From Chloroflexota bacterium (lineage in GTDB: Bacteria; Chloroflexota; UBA11872): a DNA stretch of 64,000 nucleotides. Both the position numbers and the translations under genes were made by a program. Below are positions 32,830 to 62,793 of this stretch, in pieces; within the stretch, counting starts at the first letter, position 1; the number at the start of each line of letters is the position of its first letter. The notes beneath the pieces were generated by a model that worked only from the letters and a program-made list of their open reading frames with translations, had not been told where the DNA came from and ran no database searches. Where the stretch lies: NCBI GenBank assembly GCA_022824865.1, contig JAJDZD010000072.1, positions 70,848 to 134,847 of the forward strand. The letters run 5' to 3'.

Positions 32830-34284
32830 TCACTGCTCTCCCCTCTTCCCTCTCCCCTTCCCCGGAACAAACATCCCATGCGGCTGCCCAACCACCAGCC
32901 CGCCGTCCCGGCTGAACCCCTCCGGCCGCTCCGCAAGCTCTTGCGCCAACCGCCCTCGCCAGGGCGCAAGACTCGCTTCTGAAGCCAAATCCCGCTCCTC
33001 GTTCGGATCGTCCACCACGTCAAACAAATGCTCCTCGCCCGTCTGGCTGAACCAGATGTACTTATGCCGCTCGTTCACAATCCAGTGATTCCCGTCCGCC
33101 TCCCGGTACTGGCCCGCATGCTCCCCGTGCAGCACGTCCCGCCATTCCGGCGTTTCGCCGCGCATCCACGGCAGCACACTCCGACCCGTCACCGACTCGG
33201 GAATCTCACAGCCCGCCGCGTCCAGCAGCGTCGGCATCACGTCCTGCAGCCCCACCGGCGCCGCCACCTCGACTTGCCTCGGCAACCCCATCGACCGCGG
33301 CGCCCGCGCCAGGAACGGGACGCGGACCGAGGCCTCATACGGCCACGTCTTCGCGAATAGGTGATGATCCCCCAGCATCTCCCCGTGATCCGACACGAAC
33401 ATGATGAACGTGTCGTACAGCAACCCGCGGTCGCGCATGTACTGGAACAGCCGGTTCAACTGCATGTCCACGTGATTCACCAGCCCGTAATAGCCCGCCC
33501 GGCAGTGATGCATCGGCGCCGCGTCCAGGTGCAGCCGTCGGCTCCACCGCTCCATGTCCTCCGAAAGCTCCGGATCCATCCCGCGCCGCGGCCCCTCAAA
33601 CGGCGGAACCCAGTCCCCAACCACCGGTTCCGGCAAATCCATGCGCTCGTACCGGTCAAAGAAGAACGATGGCGGCGTAAACGGCGGATGCGGGTCCATG
33701 AACGACACGTTCAGAAAAAACGGTGCCGTCGGATCGCGCGTTTCCAGGAAATCGATCGCGCGCGACACCGTCCAGAATGTCAGCGTCTTCTCCTCCGGCA
33801 AGTGCGTCGGACGGCCGATCCATCCGTTGGAAGGCGCCCCATTTGCCATCGCCCAGCGGTGCGGCGGAGCCTCGCCGCGCAGCCACGTCAGGTAATCGTT
33901 GTCGCGGCCGCGCGAGCTCTCCGCCAGGTCCATCGCGTCAAAGCCGAATCGGCGCCGCGTCGGTTGCAGGTGCAGCTTGCCGCACAGGTGCGTTTCGTAG
34001 CCCGCGTCTCGCAACTCCCCCGCCAGCGTCGCCGGCGGATCCCACTCCGGATGCCCGGTCATCCCCACCATCCCGTTCGCCGAGGGCGCCTGCCCCGACA
34101 TCAGCACCCGGCGCGCCGGAACGCACGACGGACACTCCGAATACCCGCGCCGGAAATGCGTCCCCGAAGCCCCGATCCAATCCATCGCCGGCGTCTCCAA
34201 CACCGGATGCCCATCCAACCCCAGCGCATCTCCCCGCTGCTGATCCGTCACAACCAACAAAACATTCGGCCGCCCCTCACCCAT
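32830..34284 (-). CDS. Sulfatase (arylsulfatase family), copy 1
   Basis: Start ATG 34284 with a GGAAGGAG RBS. Sulfatase motif SCVPARRVLMSGQ (C-x-P-x-R) and VLLVVTDQQRGD. About 90% identical to 36419-37876. Confidence 0.8.
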   Translation of the reverse strand: MGEGRPNVLLVVTDQQRGDALGLDGHPVLETPAMDWIGASGTHFRRGYSECPSCVPARRVLMSGQAPSANGMVGMTGHPEWDPPATLAGELRDAGYETHLCGKLHLQPTRRRFGFDAMDLAESSRGRDNDYLTWLRGEAPPHRWAMANGAPSNGWIGRPTHLPEEKTLTFWTVSRAIDFLETRDPTAPFFLNVSFMDPHPPFTPPSFFFDRYERMDLPEPVVGDWVPPFEGPRRGMDPELSEDMERWSRRLHLDAAPMHHCRAGYYGLVNHVDMQLNRLFQYMRDRGLLYDTFIMFVSDHGEMLGDHHLFAKTWPYEASVRVPFLARAPRSMGLPRQVEVAAPVGLQDVMPTLLDAAGCEIPESVTGRSVLPWMRGETPEWRDVLHGEHAGQYREADGNHWIVNERHKYIWFSQTGEEHLFDVVDDPNEERDLASEASLAPWRGRLAQELAERPEGFSRDGGLVVGQPHGMFVPGKGRGKRGEQ

Positions 34285-34365
34285 CACCCCTACTCCTTCC
34301 CCGTCCAACCCTCACGACTCCCCCCACCACAAACCCTATACCCCCATCCGGCCCCTCTTTCGTAC

Positions 34366-34642: not shown

Positions 34643-36127
34643 GTGAGCCACACGCCCGCAAACGCGCGCAGCCCCAACGTCCTCATCGTCCTCTGCGACC
34701 AGCTCCAACGCGACTTCGTCGGCGCCTACGGCCATCCCCTCGCCCACACCCCCAACATCGACCGCCTGGCTGCCCGCGGCGTCAAGCTCGCCCATGCCTA
34801 CGTGCCCAAGCCCCAGTGCGCCCCTGCCCGCGCCTCCATGTTCACCGGCCGCTATCCCCACCAGCACCAGCTCATGATGAACAACGCCGCCATCACCTGG
34901 CAGACCCCCGTCGGCCCCCTCGCCAACCGCCCCGACCTGCCCGAGACTGTCCCCTCCCTCGGCCAGGCCTTCCAGGCCGCCGGCTACCGACTCGGCTACA
35001 CCGGCCCCTGGCACATGGGCAACGACGAAACCCCCCAGCACGGCTTCACCGACTTCTGGCGCACCTATCGCTACTGGCAAGACGGCCGCGACTACTACGT
35101 CCAGTACCTGGAAAAGCTCGGCCTGGACCAACTATTTCACGACGAGCATCAGCGCGCCAACATGGCCCGCGCCGCCCGCACCGATCACGCCCAGCCGTCC
35201 ATGGCCACCGAGATCCCAACGGAGCACACCCGCACCGCCTGGGCCGTCAGGCAGACCCTGGAGTTCCTCGATAGCGCCGACACCCGCCCCTGGCTCTTCT
35301 GCTGCTCCATCAAAGACCCCCATCCCCCCGTCCTGCCGCCCCCCGAATTCGCCGACCTCGTCTCACCCGACGACGTCCGCTTCGTCCCCTCCTGGGTCGA
35401 CGACCTCTCGGACAAACCCGCCCTCCAGCGCGACTCCGCCAGCGTCCGCTGGACCTCCTACATGACCGACGACCAGTGGCGTCAATACATCGCCCACTAC
35501 CACGGCCTCAACGCCCACATCGACACCGAAGTCGGTCGGCTACTACAGGGCCTCGACCAGCGCGGCCTCACCGGCAACACCCTCGTCATCTTCCTCTCCG
35601 ACCACGGCGAAATGATGGGCTCCCACCACATGGCCCACAAAGGCCCCTACATGTACGAAGACGTCTACGCCATCCCCTTCATCGCCCACTGGCCCGGCCA
35701 TGTCGAAGGCGGCCGTACCCACCCCGACCTCTTCTCCACCGTCGACTTCACCCCCTCCCTCGGCGCCCTCTGTGGCGTGCCCGTCGATGCCGGCGCCGGC
35801 CTCGACCAGTCCGCCGTGCTCACCGATGGCGAGACGGGCCCCCGCGACGCCATCTTCGCCGAGTTCTACGGCCAGGGCTCCGAGGCCGAACGCGGCCTCA
35901 TGGCCATCAAATCCATCCGCACCCACGACTGGAAACTCAACATCTACCTCAACGACCGCTCCGAGCTCTACCACCTCGCCACCGACCCCCACGAACTCAC
36001 CAACCTCATCGACCACCCCGACCACCAGGCCACCAAACGCCACCTCGCCCACCGCATCCTCCACTGGCTCCGCCAAACCGACGACCCCCTAACCGAGGTC
36101 TTCGCCAACGAAGCCGTATCCACCTAG
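34643..36127 (+). CDS. Sulfatase (arylsulfatase family), distinct subfamily
   Basis: GTG start 34643 with a GGGAGAG RBS. PQCAPARASMFTGRYP (C-x-P-x-R), VLIVLCDQLQRD, DHGEMMGSHH. Confidence 0.85.
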   Translation: MSHTPANARSPNVLIVLCDQLQRDFVGAYGHPLAHTPNIDRLAARGVKLAHAYVPKPQCAPARASMFTGRYPHQHQLMMNNAAITWQTPVGPLANRPDLPETVPSLGQAFQAAGYRLGYTGPWHMGNDETPQHGFTDFWRTYRYWQDGRDYYVQYLEKLGLDQLFHDEHQRANMARAARTDHAQPSMATEIPTEHTRTAWAVRQTLEFLDSADTRPWLFCCSIKDPHPPVLPPPEFADLVSPDDVRFVPSWVDDLSDKPALQRDSASVRWTSYMTDDQWRQYIAHYHGLNAHIDTEVGRLLQGLDQRGLTGNTLVIFLSDHGEMMGSHHMAHKGPYMYEDVYAIPFIAHWPGHVEGGRTHPDLFSTVDFTPSLGALCGVPVDAGAGLDQSAVLTDGETGPRDAIFAEFYGQGSEAERGLMAIKSIRTHDWKLNIYLNDRSELYHLATDPHELTNLIDHPDHQATKRHLAHRILHWLRQTDDPLTEVFANEAVST

Positions 36128-36418: not shown

Positions 36419-37876
36419 CTAACTCCTCTTCCCTCTCCCCTCTCCCTTTCCGCCCGGAACAAACATCCCATGCGGCTGCCCAACAACCAGGCCACCGTCC
36501 CGGCTAAACCCCTCCGGCCGATCCGCCAGCTCCTCCGCTAACCGCCCCCGCCACGGACCAAGATCGGTGTTTGGTGCCAGATCCCGCTCCTCATTCGGAT
36601 CCTCCACCACGTCAAACAAATGCTCCTCGCCCGTCTGGCTGAACCAGATGTACTTGTGCCGCTCATTCACGATCCAGTGATTCCCGTCCGCCTCCCGGTA
36701 CTGCCCCGCGTGCTCCCCGTGCAGCACGTCGCGCCACTCCGGTGATTCCCCACGCATCCACGGCAGCACGCTGCGACCCGTCACCGATTCCGGAATCTCA
36801 CAGCCCGCCGCATCCAGCAGCGTCGGCATCACGTCCTGCAGACCCACCGGCGCCGCCACCTCCACCTGGCTGGGGAATCCCATCGACCGCGGCGCCCGCG
36901 CCAGGAACGGCACCCGAACCGACGCCTCGTACGGCCACGTCTTTGCGAATAAGTGGTGATCGCCCAGCATCTCCCCGTGATCCGACACAAACATGATGAA
37001 CGTGTCATACAGCAAGCCCTTATCCCGCATGTACTGGAACAACCGGTTCAGCTGCATGTCCACGTGATTCACCAGCCCGTAATAGCCCGCCCGGCAGTGG
37101 TGCATCGGCGCCGGGTCCAGGTGCAGTCGACGGCTCCATCGCTCGGTGTGCTCGGAAAGCTCCGGATCCATCCCGCGCCGCGGCCCCGGGAACTCCGGCA
37201 CCCAGTCGCCAATCACCGGCTCCGGCAGGTCCATGCGCTCATACCGGTCGAAAAAGAACGCCGGCGGCGTAAACGGCGGATGCGGATCCATGAACGAGAC
37301 GTTCAGGAAGAACGGCGCCGTCGGATCGCGCCTCTCAAGGAAGTCGATTGCTCGCGACACCGTCCAGAACGTCTGCGTTTTCTCCTCCGGCAGATGCGTC
37401 GGACGTCCGATCCATCCGTTCGAGGGCGCCCCATGGGCCATCGCCCAGCGGTGCGGCGGCGCCTCGCCCCGCAGCCACGTCAGGTAATCGTTGTCCAGGG
37501 TGCGCGAGCTGTTCGCCAGGTCCATCGCCTCAAACCCAAAGCGCCGCCGCGTCGGTTGCAGGTCCAGCTTGCCGCTCATGTGTGTTTCATAGCCCACGTC
37601 GCGCAACTCGCCTGCCACCGTCGCCGCCGGATCCCATTCCGGGTGCGAGATCATCCCCGCCATCCCGTTCGCCGACGGCGCCTGCCCCGACATCAGCACC
37701 CGGCGCGCCGGAGCACACGACGGATACTCCGTGTACCCCCGCCGGAAATGCGTCCCCGAAGCCCCAATCCAATCCATCGCCGGCGTCTCCAGCACCGCAT
37801 GCCCATCCAACCCCAGCGCATCCCCCCGCTGCTGATCCGTCACAATCAACAAGACATTCGGCTGCCCCTCACCCAT
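36419..37876 (-). CDS. Sulfatase, copy 2 (paralog of 32830-34284)
   Basis: Start ATG 37876 (MGEGQPNVLLIVTDQQRGD). SCAPARRVLMSGQ motif. The flanking non-coding sequence is also duplicated. Confidence 0.8.
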   Translation of the reverse strand: MGEGQPNVLLIVTDQQRGDALGLDGHAVLETPAMDWIGASGTHFRRGYTEYPSCAPARRVLMSGQAPSANGMAGMISHPEWDPAATVAGELRDVGYETHMSGKLDLQPTRRRFGFEAMDLANSSRTLDNDYLTWLRGEAPPHRWAMAHGAPSNGWIGRPTHLPEEKTQTFWTVSRAIDFLERRDPTAPFFLNVSFMDPHPPFTPPAFFFDRYERMDLPEPVIGDWVPEFPGPRRGMDPELSEHTERWSRRLHLDPAPMHHCRAGYYGLVNHVDMQLNRLFQYMRDKGLLYDTFIMFVSDHGEMLGDHHLFAKTWPYEASVRVPFLARAPRSMGFPSQVEVAAPVGLQDVMPTLLDAAGCEIPESVTGRSVLPWMRGESPEWRDVLHGEHAGQYREADGNHWIVNERHKYIWFSQTGEEHLFDVVEDPNEERDLAPNTDLGPWRGRLAEELADRPEGFSRDGGLVVGQPHGMFVPGGKGEGRGKRS

Positions 37877-37997
37877 CACCCCTACTCCTTCCCCATCCAA
37901 CCCTCGCCAATCCCCCACCACAAACCCTATACCCCCATCCGTTCGTGGTGAGCCCTGTCGAACCACCCGGCCCCTATCTTCGTAGGGGCGGGTCTCT

Positions 37998-39667
37998 GAG
38001 CCTGTTTCATAAAGTGGGTGGTGTTGCGTGACGGCGCCGCCGGCCAGCGGGCCGGCGTGGGTGGAGGTGAGGGGGTATGCCGCATCGACCGATGAGCCGC
38101 GAGCAGCAATGGCTGCTGCCTCCGAGCCTGGACGAGCTGGTGCCGGCCGATCATCCGGCCCGCTTCGTGGCCGAGTTCGTCGATGCCCTCGACGGCGGCG
38201 CCTGGGCTGCCATGGGCATCGACCTCGCCGGGGATCCCCTGGGCGCGCCGGCCTACCACCCGCGGGCGCTGCTGAGTGTCTGGGTGTACGGCTTCATGAC
38301 CGGGGTCCGGTCGAGTCGGAAGTTGGAGGCGGCCTGCCGGGAGCAACTGCCGTACCTGTGGCTGACGGGGTGCCAGACGCCGGATCACATCACCTTGTGG
38401 CGGTTCTACGCCGTCCATCGAGCCGGGATGCGGCAGCTGTTCACGCGCACGGTCCGGATGGCGCTGCGGCTGCAGCTGGTGGCGTTGGCGGTGCAGGCCG
38501 TGGACGGCACCAAAGTCGACGCCAACGCCAGCGGGGCCCGGACCTACGATTCGGCGGGGCTGCGCCGGCTGCTGGACCGGGTGGAGGGCGCGATCGACGA
38601 CCTGGAAGCGCAGCACGAAGCGGGCGACGAGCCGCGGCCAGCCCGGCTGCCGGCGGCCTTGGCCACCCGGCGGCGGTTACGCACGCAGGTGCGGACGGCC
38701 CTCGCGACGCTGGACCAGCCCACGTCGCCCACGCGGATCAATCTGACCGATGCGGACGCGCCGCTGATGAAGACGCGGCAGGGGGTGCGGCCGGCCTACA
38801 ACGCCCAGGCGATGGTCGCGCCGGTGGCCCGGGGGGCCGCGGGCGGCGGCCGCCTGATCACCGCGGTCGCGGTGGTGGATGACCCGGCCGATGCGGCGCA
38901 GTTGCCGCCCATGCTGGCGCAGGCCGAGGCCGCGACCGGTACGCCAGCGGACCTGACGGTGGCCGATGCGGGCTATCACTCGGGGGCGGCGCTGGCGGCC
39001 TGTGCGCGCCGCGGCCACCGCGTGGCCATGCCGGAGGCGCAGGCGCGGGCCCTGCAGCAGCCGTATCACAAGGACCGCTTCAGCTACGAGGCGGCGCGCG
39101 ACCGCTATCGCTGTCCGGCCGGGCAGTGGCTGCGCTTCACGCGCACGAAGACCACGCAGGGCACCGCCATGCGGCTCTACCGGGCCTCCGGGGCCGTCTG
39201 CCGGGCCTGTCCGGCCTTCGGAATCTGTACGACCGACGGGCGGCATGGACGCGGCTTGGAAATCGGGCCGCACGACGCCCTGCTACGGCGGCATCGGGCC
39301 TGGATGGCCACGCGCGCGGCCCAGCACTGGGTAGCGCAGCGCCCGGCCCTCGTCGAACCCGTCTTCGGCATCATCAAAGACCAGCAAGGGGCTCGCCGCT
39401 TCCTGCTGCGCGGGCTGGCCAATGTCAAGGCCGAGTGGGCCCTGCTCGCCACCGCCTTCAACCTGCGCACGCTCTGGCGGCTCTGGCGGGCGCCACCCAC
39501 CGAACCCGCCGGGTGGGATGCGGCGATGACCACCGCTGGCGCGCCCGCCTAGCCCCCGGTGACGCCTCAGCGCGTCGGCGCAGCCTCGTCACATCGCCGG
39601 AAGCCACCCGTCCAGGCCGCACGATGGCGTGAGCCTGCCCCCTGAATACGCCTAATGAAACAGGCTC
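37998..39667 (+). mobile_element. IS element (1670 bp), IS5/IS1182-family, with 13-bp terminal inverted repeats and 4-bp CTCT target-site duplication
   Basis: TIR GAGCCTGTTTCAT at 37998-38010 and its reverse complement ATGAAACAGGCTC at 39655-39667. CTCT at 37994-37997 and 39668-39671. Removing the element plus one CTCT regenerates the REP hairpin GGGCGGGTCTCTGACCCGCCC. Confidence 0.7.
38077..39552 (+). CDS. DDE transposase, IS5/IS1182 family (DUF772-type N-terminus)
   Basis: 491 aa. N-terminal LPPSLDELVPADHPARFV and WLTGCQTPDHITLWRF. DDE region with DAGYHS. C-terminal LLRGLANVKAEWALLATAFNLRTL is typical of this family. Confidence 0.8.
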   Translation: MPHRPMSREQQWLLPPSLDELVPADHPARFVAEFVDALDGGAWAAMGIDLAGDPLGAPAYHPRALLSVWVYGFMTGVRSSRKLEAACREQLPYLWLTGCQTPDHITLWRFYAVHRAGMRQLFTRTVRMALRLQLVALAVQAVDGTKVDANASGARTYDSAGLRRLLDRVEGAIDDLEAQHEAGDEPRPARLPAALATRRRLRTQVRTALATLDQPTSPTRINLTDADAPLMKTRQGVRPAYNAQAMVAPVARGAAGGGRLITAVAVVDDPADAAQLPPMLAQAEAATGTPADLTVADAGYHSGAALAACARRGHRVAMPEAQARALQQPYHKDRFSYEAARDRYRCPAGQWLRFTRTKTTQGTAMRLYRASGAVCRACPAFGICTTDGRHGRGLEIGPHDALLRRHRAWMATRAAQHWVAQRPALVEPVFGIIKDQQGARRFLLRGLANVKAEWALLATAFNLRTLWRLWRAPPTEPAGWDAAMTTAGAPA

Positions 39668-40001: not shown

Positions 40002-40298
40002 ATGGATGTACGCGAGGCTGCACGCACAGCCAAGACGTATATCGCCAATGTCTTTGCCGACGAGGCTATTGATGAAGTCGGACTCGAGGAAGTCGACTTT
40101 GACGACCATTCGAATCTCTGGAAGATAACCATCAGCTTCCTGCGTCCCAGGGGCGAAATGGACAGATTCCAGGCTGCGGCATCAGGCTATCCGGCCGGTA
40201 CCCCCACAATGCGTCGTTCCTTCAAGGTTGTGAACATCGACGACGGGTCCGGCAGCGTCGTTTCCGTCAAGCACCGGGTGGTGGAAGGCGCCGACTGA
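40002..40298 (+). CDS. Small acidic hypothetical protein (98 aa), upstream partner of a PIN-like gene
   Basis: GGAGAG RBS. Highly acidic (ADEAIDEVGLEEVDFDDHS). Ends 4 nt before the next ORF. No known family recognised. Confidence 0.5.
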   Translation: MDVREAARTAKTYIANVFADEAIDEVGLEEVDFDDHSNLWKITISFLRPRGEMDRFQAAASGYPAGTPTMRRSFKVVNIDDGSGSVVSVKHRVVEGAD

Positions 40299-40302
40299 CT
40301 CG

Positions 40303-40761
40303 TTGCCCGCCGCATGCTATCTCGACGCCAATCTGCTCGTGCTCCTCGTTGTCGGCGCCACGGATCAAGCCCTGGTACGTAGGCATCGTCGCCTGCAAGC
40401 ATTCGACCCTGATGACTATGAGCTTCTGGTCGAATTGCTCGGGAATTACCCGCAAGTACTGGTAACGCCAAATACACTCACCGAAACGTCCAATCTGCTA
40501 AGTCAACATGCCGAACCCCAGCGATCCAGGTTCTTTGAAACGTTCCGATCACTAATCGAAATCAACAAGGAAATAGTCGTGGAAAGCCGGCAAGCCTCAG
40601 GAAACGCATCTTTCAAGCGCCTGGGACTGACCGATGCCGCGCTTCTTGAGGTAGTCACCGCGGACACCCCGCTGATCACGGTGGACCTGGACTTATACGT
40701 GGCAGCCTTAGCAAAGTCGCCAGGTGCAGCCATAAACTTCACGCATCTCCAGCACCTCTAG
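40303..40761 (+). CDS. PIN-like domain protein
   Basis: CYLDANLLVLL (beta1 Asp), then LTETSN, LTDAALLEV and ITVDLDLYVAA acidic positions, consistent with a divergent PIN fold. Confidence 0.5.
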   Translation: MPAACYLDANLLVLLVVGATDQALVRRHRRLQAFDPDDYELLVELLGNYPQVLVTPNTLTETSNLLSQHAEPQRSRFFETFRSLIEINKEIVVESRQASGNASFKRLGLTDAALLEVVTADTPLITVDLDLYVAALAKSPGAAINFTHLQHL

Positions 40762-40987: not shown

Positions 40988-43936
40988 ATGCCCCGCACCG
41001 CCGAACACACCGTCAACGTCGAACTCGCCCGCCTCCTGCGCACTAGGCACCCGCGTTGGCGCAACGGCATCGGCGTTGAACAGACCGGCGTGCTGGCCGA
41101 CGCCCCCGCCCAGCGCCCCGACATCCTCATCCAGCATCCCGGCGGCCTGCCCGTCGTCATCGAGACCGAGTACCGCCCGGCTCGCGAAGTTGAACAGGAC
41201 GCCAGCAGCCGCCTCGGCGCGGTCGTCGCGGCCACCGGCGAAGCAATAGAGCAAGCCGTCGCCCTCCGCGTGCCCGTGGAACTCCGCGGCGTCAACCAGG
41301 CCCAACTGCCCCAACGCGTCGCCGAGGCCGCCTTCGACTACTGCGTCTTCACCGAGGGTGCCGAAGGCCCCGACCGCTGGCCCGCCAGCGGCTGGCTTAC
41401 CGGCGGCGTCGACGACCTCGCCGGCTTCATTGAACACACCGCCCTATCGGAGCGCCGCATCGCCCGCGGGACCTTAATTCTTGAAGTCGGCGTTCGTCAG
41501 GCCGCGGGTCGTCTTGAGGCCATGCTGCTAGAACCGGAAGGGATATTGGGCCGACGAGCGGCCGTCCTGCACCAGCAGCCCGGAGAGCAAACCGAGCGCA
41601 TGGCCATGGCGATCGTGGCCAACGCCATGACCTTTCACGCCACGCTCGTCGCAGCCAAGCTTGATGTCCGCTCGTTCGACGATCTGCGCCGGGATTCCTC
41701 GCTCAACCGTCTGAGCCGATCCATAGTCCTCGGGGAATGGCGCCGAATCCTCAGGGAGATCAACTACTGGCCGATCTTCCGGATTGCCGATGAGCTCATG
41801 TCGCCGGTCTCGGCCCGCGAAGCCTCGTCAATCCTCGAGCACTTGGCCAAAGTCGCCGACGAGCTGCACCAAATCGGCACGTCCACCACCCACGACCTCT
41901 CCGGCCAGATGTTCGGCCGTCTGATTACGGACCGGAAGTTCCTGGCCACCTTCTACACGCTTCCTGCCTCCGCCTCGCTACTGGCCGAACTGGCGGCGAC
42001 TCGTCTCGAAGTCGATTGGGCGGATTCCGTAGCTTTCACCGACCTGCGGATTGCCGATCTGGCCTGCGGCACCGGTGCCCTGCTGGCCTCGGCTTACCGC
42101 GCGGTGGCGTCCCGCCATCGCCGCGCCGGCGGCGACGATGCTCCGCTCCACGCAACCATGATGGAGCACTCACTCATCGGTGCCGACATCATGCCGGCCG
42201 CCTCCCACCTCACCGCCTCCACGCTCTCCAGCGCGCATCCCGGTGTGCCGTTTGATCGTACCCGCATACACACCATGCCCTACGGCGACCCAGAGCCTGA
42301 CGATCCCAGCGGGCGCGGTACCGCCATCGGCTCCCTGGATCTGATCCTCAGCGACGCCCAGCCGTCCCTCTTCGGTACCGGCCAGCACGCCGTCCGGGGC
42401 CGCGACCCGTCCCTAAGCGCCGAATCCTCGCCGGCGCATGTGCGGCAGGGCGACGAACTTCATGTGCCCCAGGGCTCGGTTGATCTCATGATCATGAATC
42501 CACCGTTCACCAGCCCGACAAATCACGCAGCGCAAAATAATGTCCCGATACCTTCGTTTGCTGGATTCGCCACCGGCGAGGACGAACAGCGAAGGATGTC
42601 GGAGGTACTCCGAGAGATTCGGAGGTGCCTGGAGCATCCTGTAGGTCACGGCAACGCCGGCCTCGCTTCCAACTTCATTGACCTCGCACACGCGAAGACA
42701 AAGCCGGGCGGGGTGCTCGCCCTTGTCTTGCCGCTGGCGGTGGTCTCAGGAAGCGCATGGTCATCGGCGCGGCGGATGCTGGCCCGCGACTACAGCGATC
42801 TGATAATCGTCACGATCGCGGCCGTCGGTGACACTGATCGTGCGTTCTCGTCGGACACCAGCATCGGCGAGGCGCTCGTTGTCGCAACACGGCGGGATGG
42901 CCCGGTCCACACAGACGAATCTGCGGCCGAAACGCTCTATGTGAGTCTCGGCAGGCGACCGCAGAGTCTGGCTGAGGCATCAGAGATCGCCCGCGCGGCT
43001 CGTTGTCTGCCAGATTCAGGTGGCGGGCTCTTTCAAATCGGTGACGAGACAGTCGGCTGTTTCATCCGCGCCACACTTGCTGACAGCGGATGCGCTGCGG
43101 TGCGTGAGCCGGGTGTCGCACAAGCTGCGCTTGCGGTGAGAGAGGGCTCGTTGCGCCTGCCTCGTATGCGCGAGGCGCACTCTTTGCCAATAGCTCTGCT
43201 GGCTGAACTTGGCCACCGCGGGCTGGTTCACCGCGACATCAACGGTAGAAACTCTGACGGTTCTCCCCGTGGCCCCTTCGATGTCATGCCGCGACTCGGC
43301 GCGGCGTCGGCGTACCCAATGCTCTGGCAACACGGCGCTAAACGTGAGCGGCGGCTCCGCGTAGAACCGGATACGGAGGGCCGCGTTCGGCAAGACTGTG
43401 AAACCAAAGCCATTGACGTATGGGAAACAGCAACTCGGCTCCATTTGACCCTGGACTTCCGCCTCAACTCGCAAAGCTTGGCCGTCTGCCTCACCCCCGA
43501 ACCTTCGATCGGAGGCCGAGCCTGGCCTAACTTTCGGCTATTGAACGCCGCAGGCGAAGAGGCGGTCGCGCTCTGGGCGAACAGCACCTTGGGACTGATG
43601 AGCTTTTGGTTGACTGGCGGGCGCCAGCAGCAGGGTCGCTCGATCATGACCATTTCTCAGTTGCCCGAACTGCCAACACTCGACGTACGCCAACTCAGCA
43701 TGGAACAGATCGAGCGATCCCACCGCATCTTCGCCGACTTCCTCGACTATGAATTCCTCCCCGCCAACGAGGCCTACCACGACCCTGTCCGCCAGGCACT
43801 CGACCAGGCCGTCCTCATCGACCTCCTCGGCCTCCCCGAATCCATCCTCGATCCCCTCGCCCTCCTCCGCCTTCAATGGTGCGCCGAACCCACCGTCCAC
43901 GGCGGCAAATCCACTAAGCCCCCTGAGCTACCGTAG
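40988..43936 (+). CDS. Large N6-adenine DNA methyltransferase fused to an HSDR_N-like nuclease-fold N-terminal domain (Type IIG/IIL-like single-chain restriction-modification candidate, 982 aa)
   Basis: N-terminal RPDILIQHPGGLPVVIETEY resembles the HSDR_N PD-(D/E)xK-fold domain, but the Lys is replaced. Motif I LRIADLACGTGALL. Motif IV VDLMIMNPPFTSPT (NPPF). I-then-IV order indicates gamma class. About 450 aa of C-terminal domain could be a target-recognition domain. Confidence 0.65.
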   Translation: MPRTAEHTVNVELARLLRTRHPRWRNGIGVEQTGVLADAPAQRPDILIQHPGGLPVVIETEYRPAREVEQDASSRLGAVVAATGEAIEQAVALRVPVELRGVNQAQLPQRVAEAAFDYCVFTEGAEGPDRWPASGWLTGGVDDLAGFIEHTALSERRIARGTLILEVGVRQAAGRLEAMLLEPEGILGRRAAVLHQQPGEQTERMAMAIVANAMTFHATLVAAKLDVRSFDDLRRDSSLNRLSRSIVLGEWRRILREINYWPIFRIADELMSPVSAREASSILEHLAKVADELHQIGTSTTHDLSGQMFGRLITDRKFLATFYTLPASASLLAELAATRLEVDWADSVAFTDLRIADLACGTGALLASAYRAVASRHRRAGGDDAPLHATMMEHSLIGADIMPAASHLTASTLSSAHPGVPFDRTRIHTMPYGDPEPDDPSGRGTAIGSLDLILSDAQPSLFGTGQHAVRGRDPSLSAESSPAHVRQGDELHVPQGSVDLMIMNPPFTSPTNHAAQNNVPIPSFAGFATGEDEQRRMSEVLREIRRCLEHPVGHGNAGLASNFIDLAHAKTKPGGVLALVLPLAVVSGSAWSSARRMLARDYSDLIIVTIAAVGDTDRAFSSDTSIGEALVVATRRDGPVHTDESAAETLYVSLGRRPQSLAEASEIARAARCLPDSGGGLFQIGDETVGCFIRATLADSGCAAVREPGVAQAALAVREGSLRLPRMREAHSLPIALLAELGHRGLVHRDINGRNSDGSPRGPFDVMPRLGAASAYPMLWQHGAKRERRLRVEPDTEGRVRQDCETKAIDVWETATRLHLTLDFRLNSQSLAVCLTPEPSIGGRAWPNFRLLNAAGEEAVALWANSTLGLMSFWLTGGRQQQGRSIMTISQLPELPTLDVRQLSMEQIERSHRIFADFLDYEFLPANEAYHDPVRQALDQAVLIDLLGLPESILDPLALLRLQWCAEPTVHGGKSTKPPELP

Positions 43937-44084
43937 ATTTTTCCGTCGCGCACTCAATTCCAGCAACGAAACGGAAGAGAACGATGGTGATCACTTGACA
44001 CCAGGCACGAATCCTAGCGACTCATCTATTTCGATACAGGACCTTCATGAAGATGAACTAGAGCATGTAATCAGAGTTTTTTCA

Positions 44085-45029
44085 ATGCGTATCGGATTGG
44101 ATCGGATCATCAAGAGCGCATCCGTCTCAAAGATTGTTCCAATAGACGATTTACTCGAAGCACTATCGTTGGATGAATGGCCAGCTGAAAGCGCAACACT
44201 TGACGAGCTTATATGGTGCTCGGAGCCACTCACACATGAGGACTTCAAGCGCTTACGTGAATATTCTGTGCACTGGCAGAAGACTAGTCAAGACTGGCGA
44301 CTTTGGATAGCTCGTGAGCCTTCGTTGCCGGCAGACGATAGAATGTTCTTTGACAAGCGTCGAATAATGATTAGTATATTCACCGTATATCGGATCTATA
44401 TAGATGCAGCGCATCAGAAACAATATCGATCCGCCCTGAGGCTTTGGCACCTAAAGAGATTGGCACCCACGATCCTTTTTACTGTAATTGTTCTAATTGT
44501 TATAGCCCTCAACAGCTGGCAGGCATCCGAGACGCTTACGCTGGATTTCTGGAAGACTATTCTGTTTCAGTACGTGGCATTTGGCGCGGTAATCTACACT
44601 TCACACTACATGACAGGAAAGCTCGGCTTTATCCACGGAGTGCTAACACTAACTGTCGTTTGGTTGTTCCCTTTCCACTTTTTCTTATTTGGAACGATTG
44701 AGGCTCTTGCAATCGACGTGCCACAATGGCAAACCGAACTGATGTCTTTAGGACTTAGCGTGCTAGTTGGGTTATTGATGGCGGAATTAAGGCACCCTTT
44801 AAAGAGCGTCAGTCAAATGCATTCAGAAGGCGGATGGGCGATAGTTTACAAAAATGTGTTGGCGACTCCGGCACTCGTGATGGCGCCGACCTACGGAGCC
44901 ATTAAGATAGTTGAATACTTGATCAGGGTATCGGTTCACAACAATCAGTTGGCAATTGTAGCAGTTCCTATCGGACTAATTGTCATCGTGGCGAGTGCGG
45001 AATTGATACGACGTGAGCTAAGTCGTTAG
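44085..45029 (+). CDS. Hypothetical membrane protein (N-terminal soluble domain plus 5 TM helices) encoded in an AT-rich insert
   Basis: First in-frame ATG after the upstream stop is 44085. GC content of 43937-45330 drops to roughly 45-48% against about 67% background. Five hydrophobic helices in the C-terminal 200 aa. Confidence 0.5.
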   Translation: MRIGLDRIIKSASVSKIVPIDDLLEALSLDEWPAESATLDELIWCSEPLTHEDFKRLREYSVHWQKTSQDWRLWIAREPSLPADDRMFFDKRRIMISIFTVYRIYIDAAHQKQYRSALRLWHLKRLAPTILFTVIVLIVIALNSWQASETLTLDFWKTILFQYVAFGAVIYTSHYMTGKLGFIHGVLTLTVVWLFPFHFFLFGTIEALAIDVPQWQTELMSLGLSVLVGLLMAELRHPLKSVSQMHSEGGWAIVYKNVLATPALVMAPTYGAIKIVEYLIRVSVHNNQLAIVAVPIGLIVIVASAELIRRELSR

Positions 45030-45289
45030 AAGGTGGGCTGAGCAATACAATGGATAGGAGGCTATAGCGACACGGATTGATAGACCGTGCTTTCAACGAC
45101 AGAATCGATGGAGATATGGCATTCGGACCGAAGCGTGAGCGCACAACGACTAACACTTGAGAAGATTGCAAACCACTCGAAGCGCAGAATGGATGAAATC
45201 GTTATATCCGTTGACTCTCGATCGATTCATAAGTCGAAGCGAGCGGTGCTCCCGTCGCTGAAGACTGGTTTCGTTCGTCGATTACGTGA

Positions 45290-45649
45290 TCAGCCTTCGA
45301 CTATCGAGTCAGGATGGCGGCAAGGAACCCTATAAATTCCAAGGACATTCAAGACGCTGACCAGCAGTAGGCTGACTATCCAGGTCTTGAGATTCTCAAC
45401 ATCGGCCTTTGTCGCGCACTGCCGAAACAATTCACCGCGGAGCCGATCAAACTCCTCGCGTAACTCCGCCCGCGTCAACGGCGGATCCCCGGCGTTCAAC
45501 TCGGCCGTTCGGACGCTTCCCCTCCTAAGTGGCGCAATCACCGCGCCCGCTGAAGGATTCCCAAGCTGCCCGAACAATCCTCTCGCTCGATCACACCCGC
45601 CCGACCCCGCCGGGACCTCGCCTCCACGCCGGCATCCCCGGCGCCGCAC
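45290..45649 (-). CDS. Small coiled-coil protein with C-terminal TM anchor, paralog A (start uncertain)
   Basis: Shares GNPSAGAVIAPLR...PLTRAELREEFDRLRGELFR.CATKAD...LK.W followed by a hydrophobic helix with 46706-46981. Its partner starts at the position aligned to Leu here, so a non-ATG start or the upstream ATG at 45649 are both possible. Confidence 0.45.
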   Translation of the reverse strand: MRRRGCRRGGEVPAGSGGCDRARGLFGQLGNPSAGAVIAPLRRGSVRTAELNAGDPPLTRAELREEFDRLRGELFRQCATKADVENLKTWIVSLLLVSVLNVLGIYRVPCRHPDSIVEG

Positions 45650-45704
45650 CGCCCCATCTATTCGCTTGATCAGTCAGGTCCGATAGACTGAATGACTCAC
45701 TTCG

Positions 45705-45980
45705 ATGCGAGTCCGTGAAATGGCCACGCTCCAGGTCGGCGTGCCTCCAAATGACCCCGAAGTCATGCTTGCCGAGATGCAACGCGAGCTGGATGACGTT
45801 CGTTGGATCGAGGACAACATGGCCGCGCTCGTCGAGGAGTACGGCATCAAGTTTGTCGCGGTCCGTCACCGCAAGGTTATTGGCTCGTCACACCGACTCA
45901 CCCTGCTTCTTGAAGACCTCAGGGAGCGCGACATTGCCCCAGGATCGGCCTCCATCGAAGTGCTCTACCGCCAGGAATAG
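45705..45980 (+). CDS. Small hypothetical protein (91 aa), upstream partner of a retropepsin-like protease
   Basis: Ends 6 nt before the protease ORF. No family recognised. Confidence 0.45.
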   Translation: MRVREMATLQVGVPPNDPEVMLAEMQRELDDVRWIEDNMAALVEEYGIKFVAVRHRKVIGSSHRLTLLLEDLRERDIAPGSASIEVLYRQE

Positions 45981-45986
45981 CCGACC

Positions 45987-46463
45987 GTGGCAATCCTTGG
46001 CACGGCAAGGCCTCCGAGCCCGGGGGCAAGTCCCGCGCCGTACATCCCTACCTGGGTCTACGCGCGCTACCCGGGAGCCGACAGGCGGCAGCACGTGACG
46101 GTTTCCTTCATGGTCGACACTGGAGCCGACCGAACCGTTCTGTCCCTTCGCAAGGCACGCGATCTCATAGGCGCCGATTGGAACGCTGTCTGTCAGACAT
46201 CCGTCACCCTCGAGGGCATTGGTGGTGCTCAGCCCTATTGGGAAGTTCCCATGCGGATCTGGTTCAGGGACGCCTCGGTCCAACGCTTTGTCTCTGTCGA
46301 GTCGCAAGTCCTGGTTCCGTTCTATTCAGAAGTTCAGGACTTGGCCGAACGCTCGAGTGAGCGCCGAGGTCGCGAACCGATCTCTTTACTGGGTCGCGAC
46401 GTCTTCGGCCACATGCGTCTCGAATTCGACCTTTCCCAGCCTGAGCAAGTAGTTCTGCGCTAG
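45987..46463 (+). CDS. Retropepsin-like (clan AA) aspartic protease, small single-domain bacterial/archaeal type
   Basis: FMVDTGADRTVLS contains the D-T-G-A catalytic signature of retroviral-type aspartic proteases. Size (158 aa) matches the small AF_0612-like family. LLGRDVF near the C-terminus is like the dimerisation strand. Confidence 0.55.
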   Translation: MAILGTARPPSPGASPAPYIPTWVYARYPGADRRQHVTVSFMVDTGADRTVLSLRKARDLIGADWNAVCQTSVTLEGIGGAQPYWEVPMRIWFRDASVQRFVSVESQVLVPFYSEVQDLAERSSERRGREPISLLGRDVFGHMRLEFDLSQPEQVVLR

Positions 46464-46705
46464 CGGCGGCCGTCAGTCGCCTCGGTGTCGCCGAGCCGAG
46501 GGCGAACTGCAAACGCGTGCTCAATTCGGATTACAAGACTCCCGATTAGGTCCCCGAAGCCATCGCGCACTAGACTATGACGATTGCGACTGGCTAGGTC
46601 TTGAAGGCGTTGCGGCCTGTAGCGCGATACTAACGGGCGATAAGCCTGTCCGCTTCGCGGTATCGGAAGTTCGCGAACTCCGCAATCATCGCCTGCCGCC
46701 GCGAC

Positions 46706-46981
46706 CTAGCGAGTCAGTAGAGTTGCGATTACCCCGGCCGTTCCAAGGAGATTAAGCACAACGACCAATAAGACACCAACCAGCCACGCTTTGAGATCCG
46801 CAAAGTCCGCCTTCGTCGCGCAGTGTCGAAACAGCTCACCACGGAGCCGATCAAACTCCTCACGCAACTCCGCCCGCGTCAGCGGGGCAGCCGAGGTCTT
46901 CGAGTCTGCCACTCGGACGTTTCCCTTCCTAAGTGGCGCAATCACCGCGCCCGCTGAAGGATTCCCATGCCGCCCGAACAA
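46706..46981 (-). CDS. Small coiled-coil protein with C-terminal TM anchor, paralog B
   Basis: MFGRHGNPSAGAVIAPLRKGNV...PLTRAELREEFDRLRGELFRHCATKADFADLKAWLVGVLLVVVLNLLG. Same architecture as 45290-45649. Confidence 0.5.
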   Translation of the reverse strand: MFGRHGNPSAGAVIAPLRKGNVRVADSKTSAAPLTRAELREEFDRLRGELFRHCATKADFADLKAWLVGVLLVVVLNLLGTAGVIATLLTR

Positions 46982-47299
46982 TCCTCTCGACCAATGCTAC
47001 CCAAACAACCCCGCCAAAGTTCCGGACGACCCCACCAGCGGTTCACCTTGATCGCAGCTGCGGCCGCTCTCAATCCCTTGTACCTTCCGCCGGCCTTGGA
47101 TTGACCAAGGCCACAGAGAGCGGGCCGGGACAGACCGAAAATCCCCGGGTCCGGTGAGACCGGAGGAGAGCAGGGTCGTCCCGGCCCTGACGCTGCCCCA
47201 GAGCCTGCAACCGCAAGGCTTAGTGCGGGGTCAACGTCCCTCGAGCCTACCCAATCGCCCCACCACCCCAAATCCCCGTCGGCATCCATACGCCCAGGC

Positions 47300-47400
47300 G
47301 CCACCCGCACCTCACCCCCAGCCCCCGACCCCATCCCATCCCTTTCCCTTCCCTTCCCCTCCCCCTCTCACTCCTCTGCCCTCTCCCCTCTACCCTTCTT
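47300..47400. repeat. Pyrimidine-rich direct repeat, copy A (about 100 bp)
   Basis: CCACCCGCACCTCACCCCCAGCCCCCGACCCCATCCCATCCCTTTCCCTTCCCTTCCCCTCCCCCTCTCACTCCTCTGCCCTCTCCCCTCT. Repeats at 47583-47685 with more than 90% identity. Confidence 0.7.
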
Positions 47401-47582
47401 CAAGTCCCCCACGTGCCACCGCCACCCTTGCCGGGACTGCCGGCACTCGCAGCACGGCCTGCACTGACTGCGTTGCCAGCAACGCTGGCAGCCCCCTGGT
47501 CGGCGACAGTCCGCCCACCACCCACCCGAAGGCCTTGCGGCCGGCGGGGTCCAAGTCTTCCCAAGCCCGCCAAACCTTCAAC

Positions 47583-47685
47583 CGCACGCGCACCTCGCCC
47601 CCAGCCCCCGACCCCATCCCATCCCTTTCCCTTCCCTTCCCATCCCCCTCTCACTTCTCTCCCCTCTCCCCTCTCCCCTTCCTCC
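47583..47685. repeat. Pyrimidine-rich direct repeat, copy B
   Basis: Second copy 283 bp downstream of copy A. The top strand is more than 90% C/T. Confidence 0.7.
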
Positions 47686-47801
47686 CCGGCACTTGAACCA
47701 GCCCATCGTTGACGCTTCAATTCACCCCGAGCCCCGATTGCCCGTTACCCCGGGGAGCTAACCCATTGCCCCGTCACCCCGGCCAACCTCTTGCCGAGGC
47801 C

Positions 47802-48428
47802 ATGGACGCCACTAGCGAGATAGGCCCAAGACTCTGGCTCTGGTGGACCCTTGCCACCGTCGCTGGCTGGGCCGTGGGCGAGTTCTTCTTCCGGGCGTCT
47901 GGTGAGTTTGTATGGGCTGCCATCCTGTTCAGGGGCGCCCACGTGCTGGGCGTCGGCGGGGCCGTGCTGCAAGCCCTTGTGCTTCGCCGGCATCTGCCGC
48001 GAGCCGCCTGGTGGGTTCTGGCAACCGGCGTTGCCGCCGTCCTGGGTGGTATCGCGGTGCTCGCCGCTATTGTCGACGTGCCCTACCTCACGCGAGGATT
48101 CGAAGTGCCGTCCATCGCGCTCATCCTGTTGTCCGTCCTTGCAAGCGGACTTCTCGTCGGCGCTTTCCAGTGGCTGATCTTGCGTCGGCACGTCGCTCGG
48201 GCTGGCTGGTGGGTTCCCGCCAGCGGCCTCAGCCTCACCCTCGGCTGGCTCGTCGGCGCCGTCGTGGTCGAAATCGCACTCGACCCCCGGTACCACCCCG
48301 CCGCAGTCGATCTAATCGCCGGCCTCGTGAGCGCCACCATCTACGGCGCCCTCACCGGCCATACCCTGTCTCGCCTTCTCCAATCCAGGAAGCCCAACCC
48401 CCACAACACCCAGCCCGTCCCGCACTGA
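47802..48428 (+). CDS. Hypothetical membrane protein with internal two-fold repeat (LRRH.xRAxWWV)
   Basis: Start chosen at MDATSEIGPRLWLWW. Two homologous halves each contain LxLRRHxxRAxWWV followed by TM helices. Confidence 0.45.
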   Translation: MDATSEIGPRLWLWWTLATVAGWAVGEFFFRASGEFVWAAILFRGAHVLGVGGAVLQALVLRRHLPRAAWWVLATGVAAVLGGIAVLAAIVDVPYLTRGFEVPSIALILLSVLASGLLVGAFQWLILRRHVARAGWWVPASGLSLTLGWLVGAVVVEIALDPRYHPAAVDLIAGLVSATIYGALTGHTLSRLLQSRKPNPHNTQPVPH

Positions 48429-48990
48429 CACCCCGTTCACGCCATCAGCGTCTCGATCGCTCAGCCCAACCCACCCGTCACGCCTAACCAACAGCCGACA
48501 AACCCCACACGCCGGCACAGCCCTCCACGCCCAGCGAGTTCACCGCACCCCCGGCACCCGTCGGTCACCCTGACACTTGCCCCTCGTCCTCCGAGAGTGT
48601 ACACTACTGGTACACCGTTCGCAACCTCACCCGGAGTCCCCATTGTCCACGCCACCAATCCGCCACCCACCATCGCCGGCCCCCGAAACAGCCGTCCGCG
48701 CCCAGTCGTCCAGCCCCCGGACCGCCATCAGCGCAGCGATTCGCCTGCTCTGGATCCTCCTCACCCTCACACCCCTCTCGCTCACCTGGATCCCCGCCAC
48801 TCTGGGTTTTCTCCCACCCGCGCTGCGCCCATCCCCCGACGCCGCCACTCCGCTCCCATCCCCGTCAAACCCACCCATCCACCCACCCCTACCCCACCGC
48901 CCAACCCCCGCATTGGCCTCGCCTCCCCGCACCAAATCGCCGCCCCCGAACGCCCTCCAGACCCCGCCAAAACACACCCCGCGCCGCCTC

Positions 48991-49014
48991 AAGAGTTTTT
49001 TGGAAAAAACTCTT
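48991..49014. promoter_or_regulatory. Perfect AT-rich palindrome AAGAGTTTTTT-gg-AAAAAACTCTT, 210 bp upstream of the isomerase/oxidoreductase/aminotransferase operon
   Basis: 11-bp inverted repeat with a 2-bp spacer, embedded in 65-70% GC pyrimidine-rich DNA. Candidate operator. It is a poor intrinsic terminator because the stem is AT-only. Confidence 0.4.
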
Positions 49015-49225
49015 ATGCGCGCGAGGCCCCCCATTTCGACCCCTCCAGCCACCCGCGTCAGCACCCACCCGCGGCTGCGGCCGCCGTTTCCCGTTCCTCC
49101 GTCCCCGTCTTCTCTCACTGCTCACTGCTCTCAGCTCACTCCTTCCGCCCCACCCGGCCTCGGTTGACATCCCACCCCACCCCGGCACGATTGACGCAGC
49201 CCGCATCCCGGAGCGCAACACCTCC

Positions 49226-50086
49226 ATGCCCTACCGCCTCGCCGCCCTCACCATCCCCTACGCCCGCGACGGCCTCTCCCGCCGCCGCGCCTACGCCGGC
49301 ATCGCCCGCGTCGGCTTCACCCACGTCGGTCTCTACGACCGCCACGACGAAGGCCCCCTCTGGCCCGATGGCGCCGATGCCTCCGCGGCCCGCGCCGCCG
49401 TCCAGCCCGCCCTTGACGCCGGCCTCCAGGTCGACCACAAGTCCCACGGCGGGGTCACTTCCGACCCCGGGGAACCCGAACGCTTCCTCATGGCCATCGA
49501 GCTCGCCGCCGAATCCGGCGTGCCCGCCCTGGTCTGCTGGGGCCCCTACGAATACCCGGCCGATGGTTTCCCCGACCATCCCAAGTCCGGTCCCGCCTGG
49601 CAGGCGGAGGTCGACGGCTTCTACGCCGCCTTTGAACCCGGCGTGCGCGCCGCCGAGGATGCGGGCGTCCTGCTGCTGCCCAAGCCCCACACGGGCGTCG
49701 GCAAGCACGGCGCCGCCCTGCGCGAGTTGCACGACCGCTTCGACTCGCCGGCGGTCGGCGTCTGTTACGACACCGGCAACGTCCACTATTACGAGGGCCT
49801 GGACCCGGTGGAGGACATCGCTCCCGTGGCCGGCCTCTGCCGCCAGCTCATCATGAAGGACCACATCGGCCCCCGCGGCGCGCCCGTCTTCCGCACTCCC
49901 GGCGACGGCGATATCGACCACCAGGCCGTCATTGCCAGGCTTGCCGCCGCCGGTTTCGACGGCACGCTGACCAACGAACGTGTGGACGTTTCGGGCGCCG
50001 AGGCGATCGACGTCGAACTCGGTCGCGCCCGCCGTCATATGCTGGCGGTGGCCGACGCCGCGTTCGGGGAGTCCACCGGTGCCTGA
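49226..50086 (+). CDS. Sugar phosphate isomerase/epimerase (xylose-isomerase-like TIM barrel)
   Basis: 286 aa with an AP-endonuclease-2/xylose-isomerase-like TIM-barrel pattern (metal-binding E/D/H positions, e.g. CYDTGNVHYYEG). Confidence 0.7.
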   Translation: MPYRLAALTIPYARDGLSRRRAYAGIARVGFTHVGLYDRHDEGPLWPDGADASAARAAVQPALDAGLQVDHKSHGGVTSDPGEPERFLMAIELAAESGVPALVCWGPYEYPADGFPDHPKSGPAWQAEVDGFYAAFEPGVRAAEDAGVLLLPKPHTGVGKHGAALRELHDRFDSPAVGVCYDTGNVHYYEGLDPVEDIAPVAGLCRQLIMKDHIGPRGAPVFRTPGDGDIDHQAVIARLAAAGFDGTLTNERVDVSGAEAIDVELGRARRHMLAVADAAFGESTGA

Positions 50087-62554: not shown

Positions 62555-62698
62555 GCCAGGCCGAGCGTCCTGAGACGCTTTGGCTGGTGATCCCGCTCTT
62601 GTCCAGAGTCCTTTGCACGTCAAGGAACAGGGGCTGGAGCGTGTCTTACGCCGCATGGCAGCGCTTCCCGCCCCTCGCCCGTTGAGGGACTCCCCGGG

Positions 62699-62793
62699 CG
62701 GAGGTGCATGGGAGTCGAACCCACCTGGAACGCTCACCAGCGCCCCACAACGGTTTTGAAGACCGCGAGGACCACCCGGCCCCGTCCACCTCC
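62699..62793 (-). tRNA. selC: Candidate selenocysteine tRNA (tRNA-Sec, anticodon UCA), 95 nt
   Basis: Minus-strand sequence is GGAGGTGGACGGGGCCGGGTGGTCCTCGCGGTCTTCAAAACCGTTGTGGGGCGCTGGTGAGCGTTCCAGGTGGGTTCGACTCCCATGCACCTCCG. Acceptor is 8 nt (one G.G mismatch at pair 8). 6-bp D-stem with 4-nt loop. Anticodon loop CTTCAAA is identical to E. coli selC. Long variable arm. T-loop TTCGACT is identical to E. coli selC. Discriminator is G. Confidence 0.55.

Follow-up and report, generated by a model that had tools for sequence, protein, structure and literature searches.

A predicted single-chain Type IIG/IIL-like restriction–modification protein and its family, viewed from a Chloroflexota genome

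The Type IIG restriction–modification (RM) enzyme BpuSI joins in one chain an N-terminal PD-(D/E)xK nuclease, a helical connector, a gamma-class N6-adenine methyltransferase (residues 293-579), and a target-recognition domain (TRD; 580-876) that has an extra domain inside it (PMC3185434). Most Type IIG enzymes need a second methylase; MmeI is an example of one such protein making up a complete RM system (PMC2582602). We analyzed a 64,000-nucleotide stretch of a Chloroflexota contig (JAJDZD010000072.1; hereafter the window), in which a gene at 40988-43936 on the forward strand encodes a 982-residue protein with a similar layout. Judging from predicted structure and sequence conservation, we put at roughly 60% the probability that the whole protein is an active, self-sufficient single-chain RM enzyme of Type IIG/IIL-like kind.

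The gene, its fold and the methyltransferase core

The gene is an uninterrupted open reading frame (ORF) of 982 codons plus stop in DNA of 65% G+C. It is a real gene and not a chance high-GC reading frame: at E<=1e-3 more than 2,400 homologues match it over the full length in a 90%-clustered protein collection, a 50%-clustered library yields 3,633 representatives at the same cutoff (1,092 at E<=1e-30), and its fold is predicted with confidence. Homologues line up with its N-terminus, MPRT-E--N, and the start codon is therefore right. The ORF and every motif quoted in the initial annotation are confirmed; the translation has PD at residues 44-45, VVIETEY at 56-62, FYTLP at 322-326, DLACGTGALL at 357-366, and NPPF at 504-507. 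Promoter and terminator scans around the gene returned nothing exceeding shuffled expectation.

We modeled the protein with AlphaFold on an alignment of 79 sequences, with members down to 33% identity. The model has a mean predicted local distance difference test score (pLDDT) of 91 and a predicted template modeling score (pTM) of 0.93, and its low-confidence parts are two loops only, residues 464-487 and 511-515; an earlier run on 22 close homologues had been poor (pLDDT 65, methyltransferase core disordered) and was mended by the larger alignment. In the predicted structure the chain falls into four parts: a nuclease (residues ~1-140), helices (141-300), a gamma-class methyltransferase (~301-640), and a TRD (~641-982). 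The stretch of about 450 residues that had been taken for one C-terminal domain is not one domain in this model, being made up of the second half of the methyltransferase (to about residue 640) and a TRD of ~340 residues.

Comparison of the model with the PDB using Foldseek gave BpuSI as the first match, aligned end to end over 1,086 columns (E 1.2e-15). PglX/BrxX followed, with the highest template modeling (TM) score, 0.42-0.46 over ~1,000 columns, then CamA and M.BseCI, which span the methyltransferase and the TRD (TM 0.57-0.59 of target), and after these DrdV (Type IIL) and LlaBIII (Type ISP). DNA methyltransferases and RM enzymes account for all 50 matches listed. The Type IIG/IIL-like architecture first read from the motifs is thus supported by the structural ranking, and also by the Eco57I matches of the family.

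These come from the methyltransferase domain. Its motifs run X, I (DLACGTG, 357-363), IV, the gamma-class order; the class had been assigned from motif I preceding motif IV, and the position of motif X ahead of I agrees. Y323, T324, D357, G361, G363, N504, P505, and P506 are invariant across the 79 sequences. The window protein by itself gave sub-threshold matches to Pfam MTS and Methyltransf_36, to N6_Mtase (E=0.088, below cutoff), and to NCBIfam PrmC and MAD2 (~15 bits). When 43 diverse members were searched, Pfam Eco57I matched 36 (best 5.7e-10), N6_Mtase 17, and MmeI_Mtase 7 (best 1.5e-4). PADLOC models matched the catalytic core (MTase_II 1e-10, mad2 2.7e-10, PglX 2e-4), and a profile of the 79 sequences matched, among PDB chains, BrxX/PglX best (8e-5, at motif I) and DrdV at 5e-4 (motifs X and IV-VI). 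The family-level searches speak more plainly here than the single protein does. The homologues listed have no precomputed Pfam domain, and the few named ones are called 'hypothetical protein.' From the model and these profiles, the protein is very probably a DNA adenine methyltransferase of the gamma class that carries its own TRD.

The putative nuclease domain and target recognition

The N-terminal domain is modeled as a helix (residues 6-20), strands 28-30, 46-48, and 56-62, a helix (68-73), and a strand (89-95). D45 opens the second strand and E59-x-E61 falls in the third, the places taken by PD-(D/E)xK residues (PMC3424549). Across 79-100 diverse relatives, down to 33% identity, E6 in the first helix, D45, and E59 vary little or not at all, matching N504-P505-P506 in conservation; D45 and E59 are kept in 99 of 100 representatives. 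The order of elements, the BpuSI match, and these conserved residues support the PD-(D/E)xK-type fold proposed in the initial annotation. Its closer likening of the N-terminus to HSDR_N is not supported, as Pfam HSDR_N, with the cutoff relaxed to E<=10, matched none of the 43 full-length and 25 N-terminal sequences searched. YhcN, the sole N-terminal match (E 0.19), was judged spurious.

As had been noticed, the catalytic lysine is replaced in VIETEY: the window protein has Glu at position 61, giving a PD-x13-ExE motif. Position 61 is Glu in 258 of 278 full-length sequences and Lys, the canonical ExK, in 17 (80 and 17, respectively, among the 100 representatives), and the Lys61 members are more distant, at 33-48% identity to the query. 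The residue at 71 goes with it, being Asp or Glu in all 258 sequences with Glu61 and Gln or Asn in 13 of the 17 with Lys61. We disfavor decay: D45 and E59 are no less invariant than NPPF, and E61 is a clade-wide variant in step with residue 71, a co-variation that points to active-site co-evolution and suggests a remodeled, probably functional site behind the missing lysine. These patterns suggest a family of canonical ExK members together with a large derived clade in which the site is all-acidic, D45/E59/E61(+D71), and BamHI-like. More speculatively, the clade-wide switch from ExK/Q71 to ExE/D71 could be a real change in nuclease chemistry or regulation of a sort not yet reported for Type IIG enzymes.

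The TRD has conserved residues W780, G842, G843, W846, W863, and N865, and an element, LWANSTLGL, that we take to resemble the LNS motif of TaqI/HsdS-type TRDs. Within the TRD, residues 641-760 accumulate substitutions at 1.5-2.0 times the chain mean in 1,589 pairs that are 70-95% identical, as against only 1.1-1.4 times among pairs below 70%. On one Longimicrobiales chromosome (locus L042) three tandem copies are domain mosaics: copies 1 and 3 share 96-99% identity across residues 1-600 and 78-83% over 601-800, copies 2 and 3 agree at 94-98% over 601-900 and at 73-88% over 1-600, and the catalytic half and the TRD have therefore recombined. Other paralogues sharing a genome are least alike in the N-terminal and 640-770 regions. 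Residues 641-760 are likely the DNA-specificity determinant, and a diversifying one; a recognition module that changes fast and is shuffled while the catalytic scaffold stays conserved would be expected of an RM enzyme under phage pressure.

Table 1. Coordinates of the gene, of its predicted parts, and of copy arrays in related loci (window positions unless a locus is named).
Feature	Position	Strand	Basis
Complete ORF, 982 aa + stop, single-chain RM-like protein	40988..43936	+	Translation, motifs, homologue-aligned start
N-terminal PD-(D/E)xK-type nuclease domain (predicted), aa 1-140	40988..41407	+	Model element order, BpuSI Foldseek match, conserved E6/PD45/E59
Putative catalytic motif P44-D45...E59-T-E61...E69-x-D71	41117..41200	+	D45/E59 conservation, 61/71 pairing
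All-helical connector (predicted), aa 141-300	41408..41887	+	Model helices 141-296; same connector in BpuSI (PMC3185434)
Gamma-class N6-adenine DNA methyltransferase domain (predicted), aa 301-640	41888..42907	+	Profiles, Foldseek, motifs
Motif X, FYTLP	41951-41965	+	
Motif I, DLACGTG	42056-42076	+	
ADIMP	42182-42196	+	
Motif IV, NPPF	42497-42508	+	
C-terminal TRD and terminal helices (predicted), aa 641-982	42908..43933	+	Foldseek CamA/BseCI, conserved residues
Fast-diverging part of TRD, likely specificity determinant, aa 641-760	42908..43267	+	Pairwise divergence, tandem mosaics
Tandem or near-tandem arrays, 2-3 copies	L042 1833-10958; L059 5016-10907; L066 327-6156; L060 8001-17142		

Proposed mode of action and genomic neighborhood

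We propose that the C-terminal TRD would read a short asymmetric DNA sequence, and that the central gamma-class domain, with S-adenosylmethionine (SAM), would make N6-methyladenine at one adenine of that site, marking host DNA as self. The N-terminal PD-(D/E)xK nuclease would cut unmethylated phage or other foreign DNA beside the site in a Mg2+-dependent manner, the helical connector holding it at a fixed distance and so setting the cut position; in the clade of the window protein it would use the BamHI-type all-acidic site instead of D/E/K. Cleavage, SAM dependence, cut distance, and protection of the host with one methylase are what we infer for this enzyme.

Several observations weigh against an active RM enzyme. 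The window protein alone passes no curated Pfam or NCBIfam threshold, and searches with its nuclease domain (Pfam on the 25 N-terminal sequences and a PDB profile search) gave no significant sequence match, either to a known nuclease family or to a PDB chain. The TRD is, overall, more conserved than typical RM specificity domains. There is no second methylase in the 64-kb window, though most Type IIG enzymes need one (PMC2582602) and an unlinked gene would fall outside the search. Distant relatives on conjugative plasmids, annotated only as 'N-6 DNA methylase,' stand amid anti-restriction-type genes (ArdC-like metallopeptidase, DUF3560, PRTRC).

The best-surviving alternative, in our view unlikely, takes up several of these points: the protein would be a modification-only (orphan) DNA adenine methyltransferase serving epigenetic regulation or shielding DNA from other restriction systems, and its N-terminal domain a DNA-binding, regulatory, or oligomerization module. 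This would suit a protein that lacks both the canonical catalytic lysine and a companion methylase, as well as the company kept by the distant plasmid homologues; also in its favor, relatives in haloarchaeal viruses, annotated 'type IIG restriction modification enzyme,' span the connector and methyltransferase only. It sits poorly with the strictness with which E6, D45, and E59 are kept, equal to that of the methyltransferase motif, with the E61/K61 alternation in step with residue 71, unexpected in a relic domain, and with the retention of the entire ~140-residue domain in nearly all full-length members. Of the options left standing by the initial annotation, a nuclease-dead variant is thus disfavored by D45/E59 invariance, by 61/71 co-variation, and by ExK in 17 of 278 relatives; a sensor of a larger system is disfavored by the neighborhood.

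To define that neighborhood we retrieved the 79 closest loci from species-representative genomes, added several found in assemblies, and clustered all ORFs in their 8-10 kb flanks (84 loci). Apart from the gene itself and its shadow ORFs, no neighbor family is shared beyond within-lineage synteny. In the window, Pfam, NCBIfam, and PADLOC searches revealed no RM or defense-like gene within +-10 kb. Neither the window nor the related loci hold BREX genes (pglZ, brxC, brxA/B, brxL), no HsdS/HsdR or helicase gene adjoins in the window or the 84 loci, and there are no conserved MADS neighbors, the NCBIfam MAD2 model (NF047738) scoring 14.7 bits against a cutoff of 720. The absence of a separate specificity or restriction partner, first remarked in the window, thus extends across the 84 loci, and the lack of a shared neighbor rules out the gene arrangement of BREX, MADS, or Type I systems at these loci, so that a stand-alone enzyme is left. 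Two candidate partners were rejected: a ~790-residue downstream 'paralogue' in Dehalococcoidia loci proved unrelated by BLAST, shadow ORFs having chained it into a single-linkage cluster, and by eye resembles a CoA-transferase; and a cluster found in 13 loci resembles, by eye, ABC-type ATPases and sits at variable distances from the gene.

These results bear directly on the idea that the protein is a component of a larger multi-gene defense system (BREX PglX-like, MADS MAD2-like, or Type I/ISP-like) with partners elsewhere in the genome. In its favor, PglX/BrxX leads both in TM-score (0.45) and in the PDB sequence search, and the PADLOC mad2 and PglX models match over the methyltransferase core; given that no PglZ, BrxC/L, MADS, HsdR/S, or helicase gene adjoins and that the MAD2 score is so far below cutoff, we regard it as improbable. 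In addition, PglX is not known to have an N-terminal nuclease domain.

The surroundings in the window comprise an upstream IS1182 transposase and two small unannotated ORFs, with sulfatases and metabolic genes farther out. The transposase gene is intact (38077-39552, +; NCBIfam 3.8e-106) and lies 1.4 kb upstream of the RM-like gene; the locus is a hotspot for insertions. The ORF pair just upstream encodes 98 residues (40002-40298, +) and 152 residues (40303-40761, +); it has no Pfam, NCBIfam, or PADLOC match, and the 152-residue product ('YLDANLLV...', 'TPNTLTE') is PIN-like by eye, which suggests a toxin-antitoxin pair. Right after the stop codon G+C falls sharply, to ~52% over 1.7 kb (43937-45660). 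This stretch is absent from the syntenic loci L002, L003, and L008, contains an ORF for a 314-residue multi-pass membrane protein (44085-45029, +) with no Pfam match, and looks like a recent foreign insertion. Beyond it lie ORFs of 91 residues (45705-45980, +) and 158 residues (45987-46463, +), the latter with weak retropepsin-like matches (Asp_protease_2 4.6e-5, RVP 1e-4). As this pair is directly 3' of the RM-like gene in three related Chloroflexota loci, the 1.7-kb insertion has parted them in the window. Paralogous small ORFs (45290-45649, -, and 46706-46981, -) flank the retropepsin-like pair, with matching copies in relatives, and share '...GNPSAGAVIAPLR.G.VR...PLTRAELREEFDRLRGELFR.CATKAD...' and a C-terminal hydrophobic segment.

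Elsewhere in the window there are three clustered arylsulfatase genes (32830-34308, -; 34643-36127, +; 36419-37966, -; Pfam Sulfatase 1e-39 to 1e-52). Clustered sulfatases are a reported trait of sponge-associated Chloroflexota and fit the habitat inferred below. GC skew is strongly and persistently negative, down to -0.36, over 16000-37000 and 46000-50000, and proline-rich low-complexity ORFs occur (e.g., 47154-47696). A tRNA-Sec gene (anticodon TCA; 62697-62793, -) indicates that the organism probably uses selenocysteine.

Distribution, meaning and comparison with known systems

The 79 closest loci, which were ranked by similarity to a query probably from a sponge Chloroflexota, are in metagenome-assembled genomes (MAGs) of Chloroflexota/Dehalococcoidia, Latescibacterota, Alpha- and Gammaproteobacteria, Acidimicrobiia, Longimicrobiales/Gemmatimonadota, Binatia, Spirochaetales, Acidobacteriota, Rhodothermales, and Candidatus Synechococcus spongiarum. 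Several MAG names suggest sponge symbionts (Ca. Poriferihabitaceae, Ca. Spongiisociaceae, S. spongiarum), and some label series we take to be sponge-derived. In several genomes the copy number is two to four or higher, with some copies in tandem. With sponge origin read from MAG names, the family appears to have expanded across many phyla of sponge-associated bacteria, to be multi-copy there, and to recombine.

Proteins from different phyla reach 77-80% amino-acid identity, for instance in the pairs Latescibacterota-Gemmatimonadota and Binatia-Alphaproteobacteria, which implies horizontal transfer across phyla, with MAG binning errors as a caveat. Two further pairs considered as cross-phylum transfers (L055/L071 and L029/L065, 84-93% nucleotide identity) were dropped when a taxonomy look-up placed the members of each pair in the same class or order. 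Two copies on one Latescibacterota chromosome (L030 and L035, 7995-10894) are 96.7% identical in nucleotide sequence with unrelated flanks, the homology beginning 9 nt ahead of the ATG and ending immediately ahead of the stop codon, and many pairs at 80-89% nucleotide identity have likewise ORF-tight boundaries. The simplest explanation is gene conversion or allelic replacement between paralogues, anchored in conserved coding ends; a mobile-element reading was set aside for want of repeats or a recombinase, and nothing beyond these boundaries speaks for a self-mobilizing nuclease. The two copies in L059 are essentially identical and could be a very recent duplication or an assembly artifact.

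Beyond sponges, relatives also occur on plasmids. One of full length and 39% identity is on the Nitrosospira plasmid pNRS527-2 (NZ_AP024517.1, 38443-41388) from a rice-associated isolate; it lies directly after a type IV secretion system coupling-protein gene and is not in the plasmid's listed gene table. Following it across the record origin (313-3713) are genes for an ATP-binding protein and an S8 peptidase, possibly another defense-type module. More distant relatives are on Aminobacter and Sulfuricystis plasmids. In the Dinoroseobacter shibae plasmid pDSHI04 (NC_009958.1, 22607-23302) a TRD-only fragment (aa 728-949, 41% identity) among IS5, IS110, and IS3 transposases appears to be what is left of a family member.

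Selfish behavior is a known trait of RM genes, and the multiple and tandem copies within genomes, the ORF-only homology of the near-identical Latescibacterota copies, the tight boundaries of many other pairs, and the cross-phylum similarity could all be drawn together in the view that this is mainly a selfish, self-propagating gene, its nuclease aiding homing-like copying or post-segregational killing. We find little likelihood in this as the principal explanation, because no terminal repeats, target duplications, or recombinase are associated, because conversion or allelic replacement accounts more simply for the boundaries, and because it overlaps a single-chain RM enzyme rather than replacing it. 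That the protein is an RNA or protein (Gln-N5) methyltransferase with an NPPF motif, as the sub-threshold MTS and PrmC matches and METTL5 in the PDB profile search might hint, is scarcely credible, since such matches span only ~20-50 residues around NPPF or motif I and the full-length fold, motif X FYTLP, and TaqI/CamA-type TRD all fit DNA enzymes.

The enzyme class is well known, so conceptual novelty is modest; the family itself is new, being large, unannotated, and missed by domain libraries at the single-sequence level. Because its members are annotated 'hypothetical protein' and no Pfam or NCBIfam model passes, defense-system and RM censuses, those of sponge microbiomes included, probably miss it, and recognition as a single-chain RM family would add a frequent defense gene to inventories. 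Relatives are in more than 10 phyla of apparent sponge symbionts, often as several tandem, recombining copies, and sponge microbiomes have been reported as enriched in defense features (PMC5099237); no literature linking sponges with MmeI or Type IIG enzymes was among the matches listed. A speculative and rather doubtful extension is that the family acts as a horizontally circulating single-gene RM 'currency' of the sponge microbiome, with a possible ExK to ExE change of chemistry. If so, community members with related specificities would share methylation marks, and DNA could pass among them while DNA of phages or from outside is cleaved. The natural variants and mosaics of the TRD would lend themselves to specificity engineering as done with MmeI, and the ExK/ExE pair with its co-varying second-shell residue to studies of PD-(D/E)xK chemistry.

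Among described systems, BpuSI and the Eco57I-like Type IIG enzymes have the same four parts in the same order with similar boundaries, the nuclease N-terminal, in one polypeptide. The window protein differs in its sequence, only ~11% identical to BpuSI, in its motif, PD-x13-ExE(+D71) in place of PD-x15-ExK, and in that no accompanying second methylase gene was seen in the window. At the motif level it resembles BamHI, a fully active nuclease with a working ExE active site (D94/E111/E113), where Glu likewise takes the place of the canonical Lys at the third motif position and more acidic residues lie near. BamHI is listed as a PD-(D/E)xK active-site variant (PMC3424549). The likeness ends at the motif, as BamHI, a small Type IIP homodimer, is unrelated to the family in sequence. 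PglX/BrxX is likewise a large gamma-class methyltransferase with a helical N-terminal part and a TRD, and gives the top TM-score and the best PDB sequence match; the window protein, in contrast, is ~220 residues shorter, has an N-terminal nuclease motif, and has no BREX genes near.

The MmeI family and DrdV (Type IIL) are single proteins of ~920-1030 residues with the same domain order and without a separate methylase or specificity subunit, and DrdV is further linked to the family by its profile and structural matches. By sequence the family is not part of the MmeI family: of the MmeI models only MmeI_Mtase matches the 43 members, weakly and in 7, with none for MmeI_N, MmeI_hel, MmeI_TRD, or MmeI_C, and MmeI itself (5HR4) is not among the 50 listed structural matches. 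MmeI-type behavior, with one-strand methylation and two-site cleavage ~20 nt away, is assumed here by analogy. As no partner gene appears to be needed, we suggest, again by analogy, that the enzyme is closest in logic to Type IIL.

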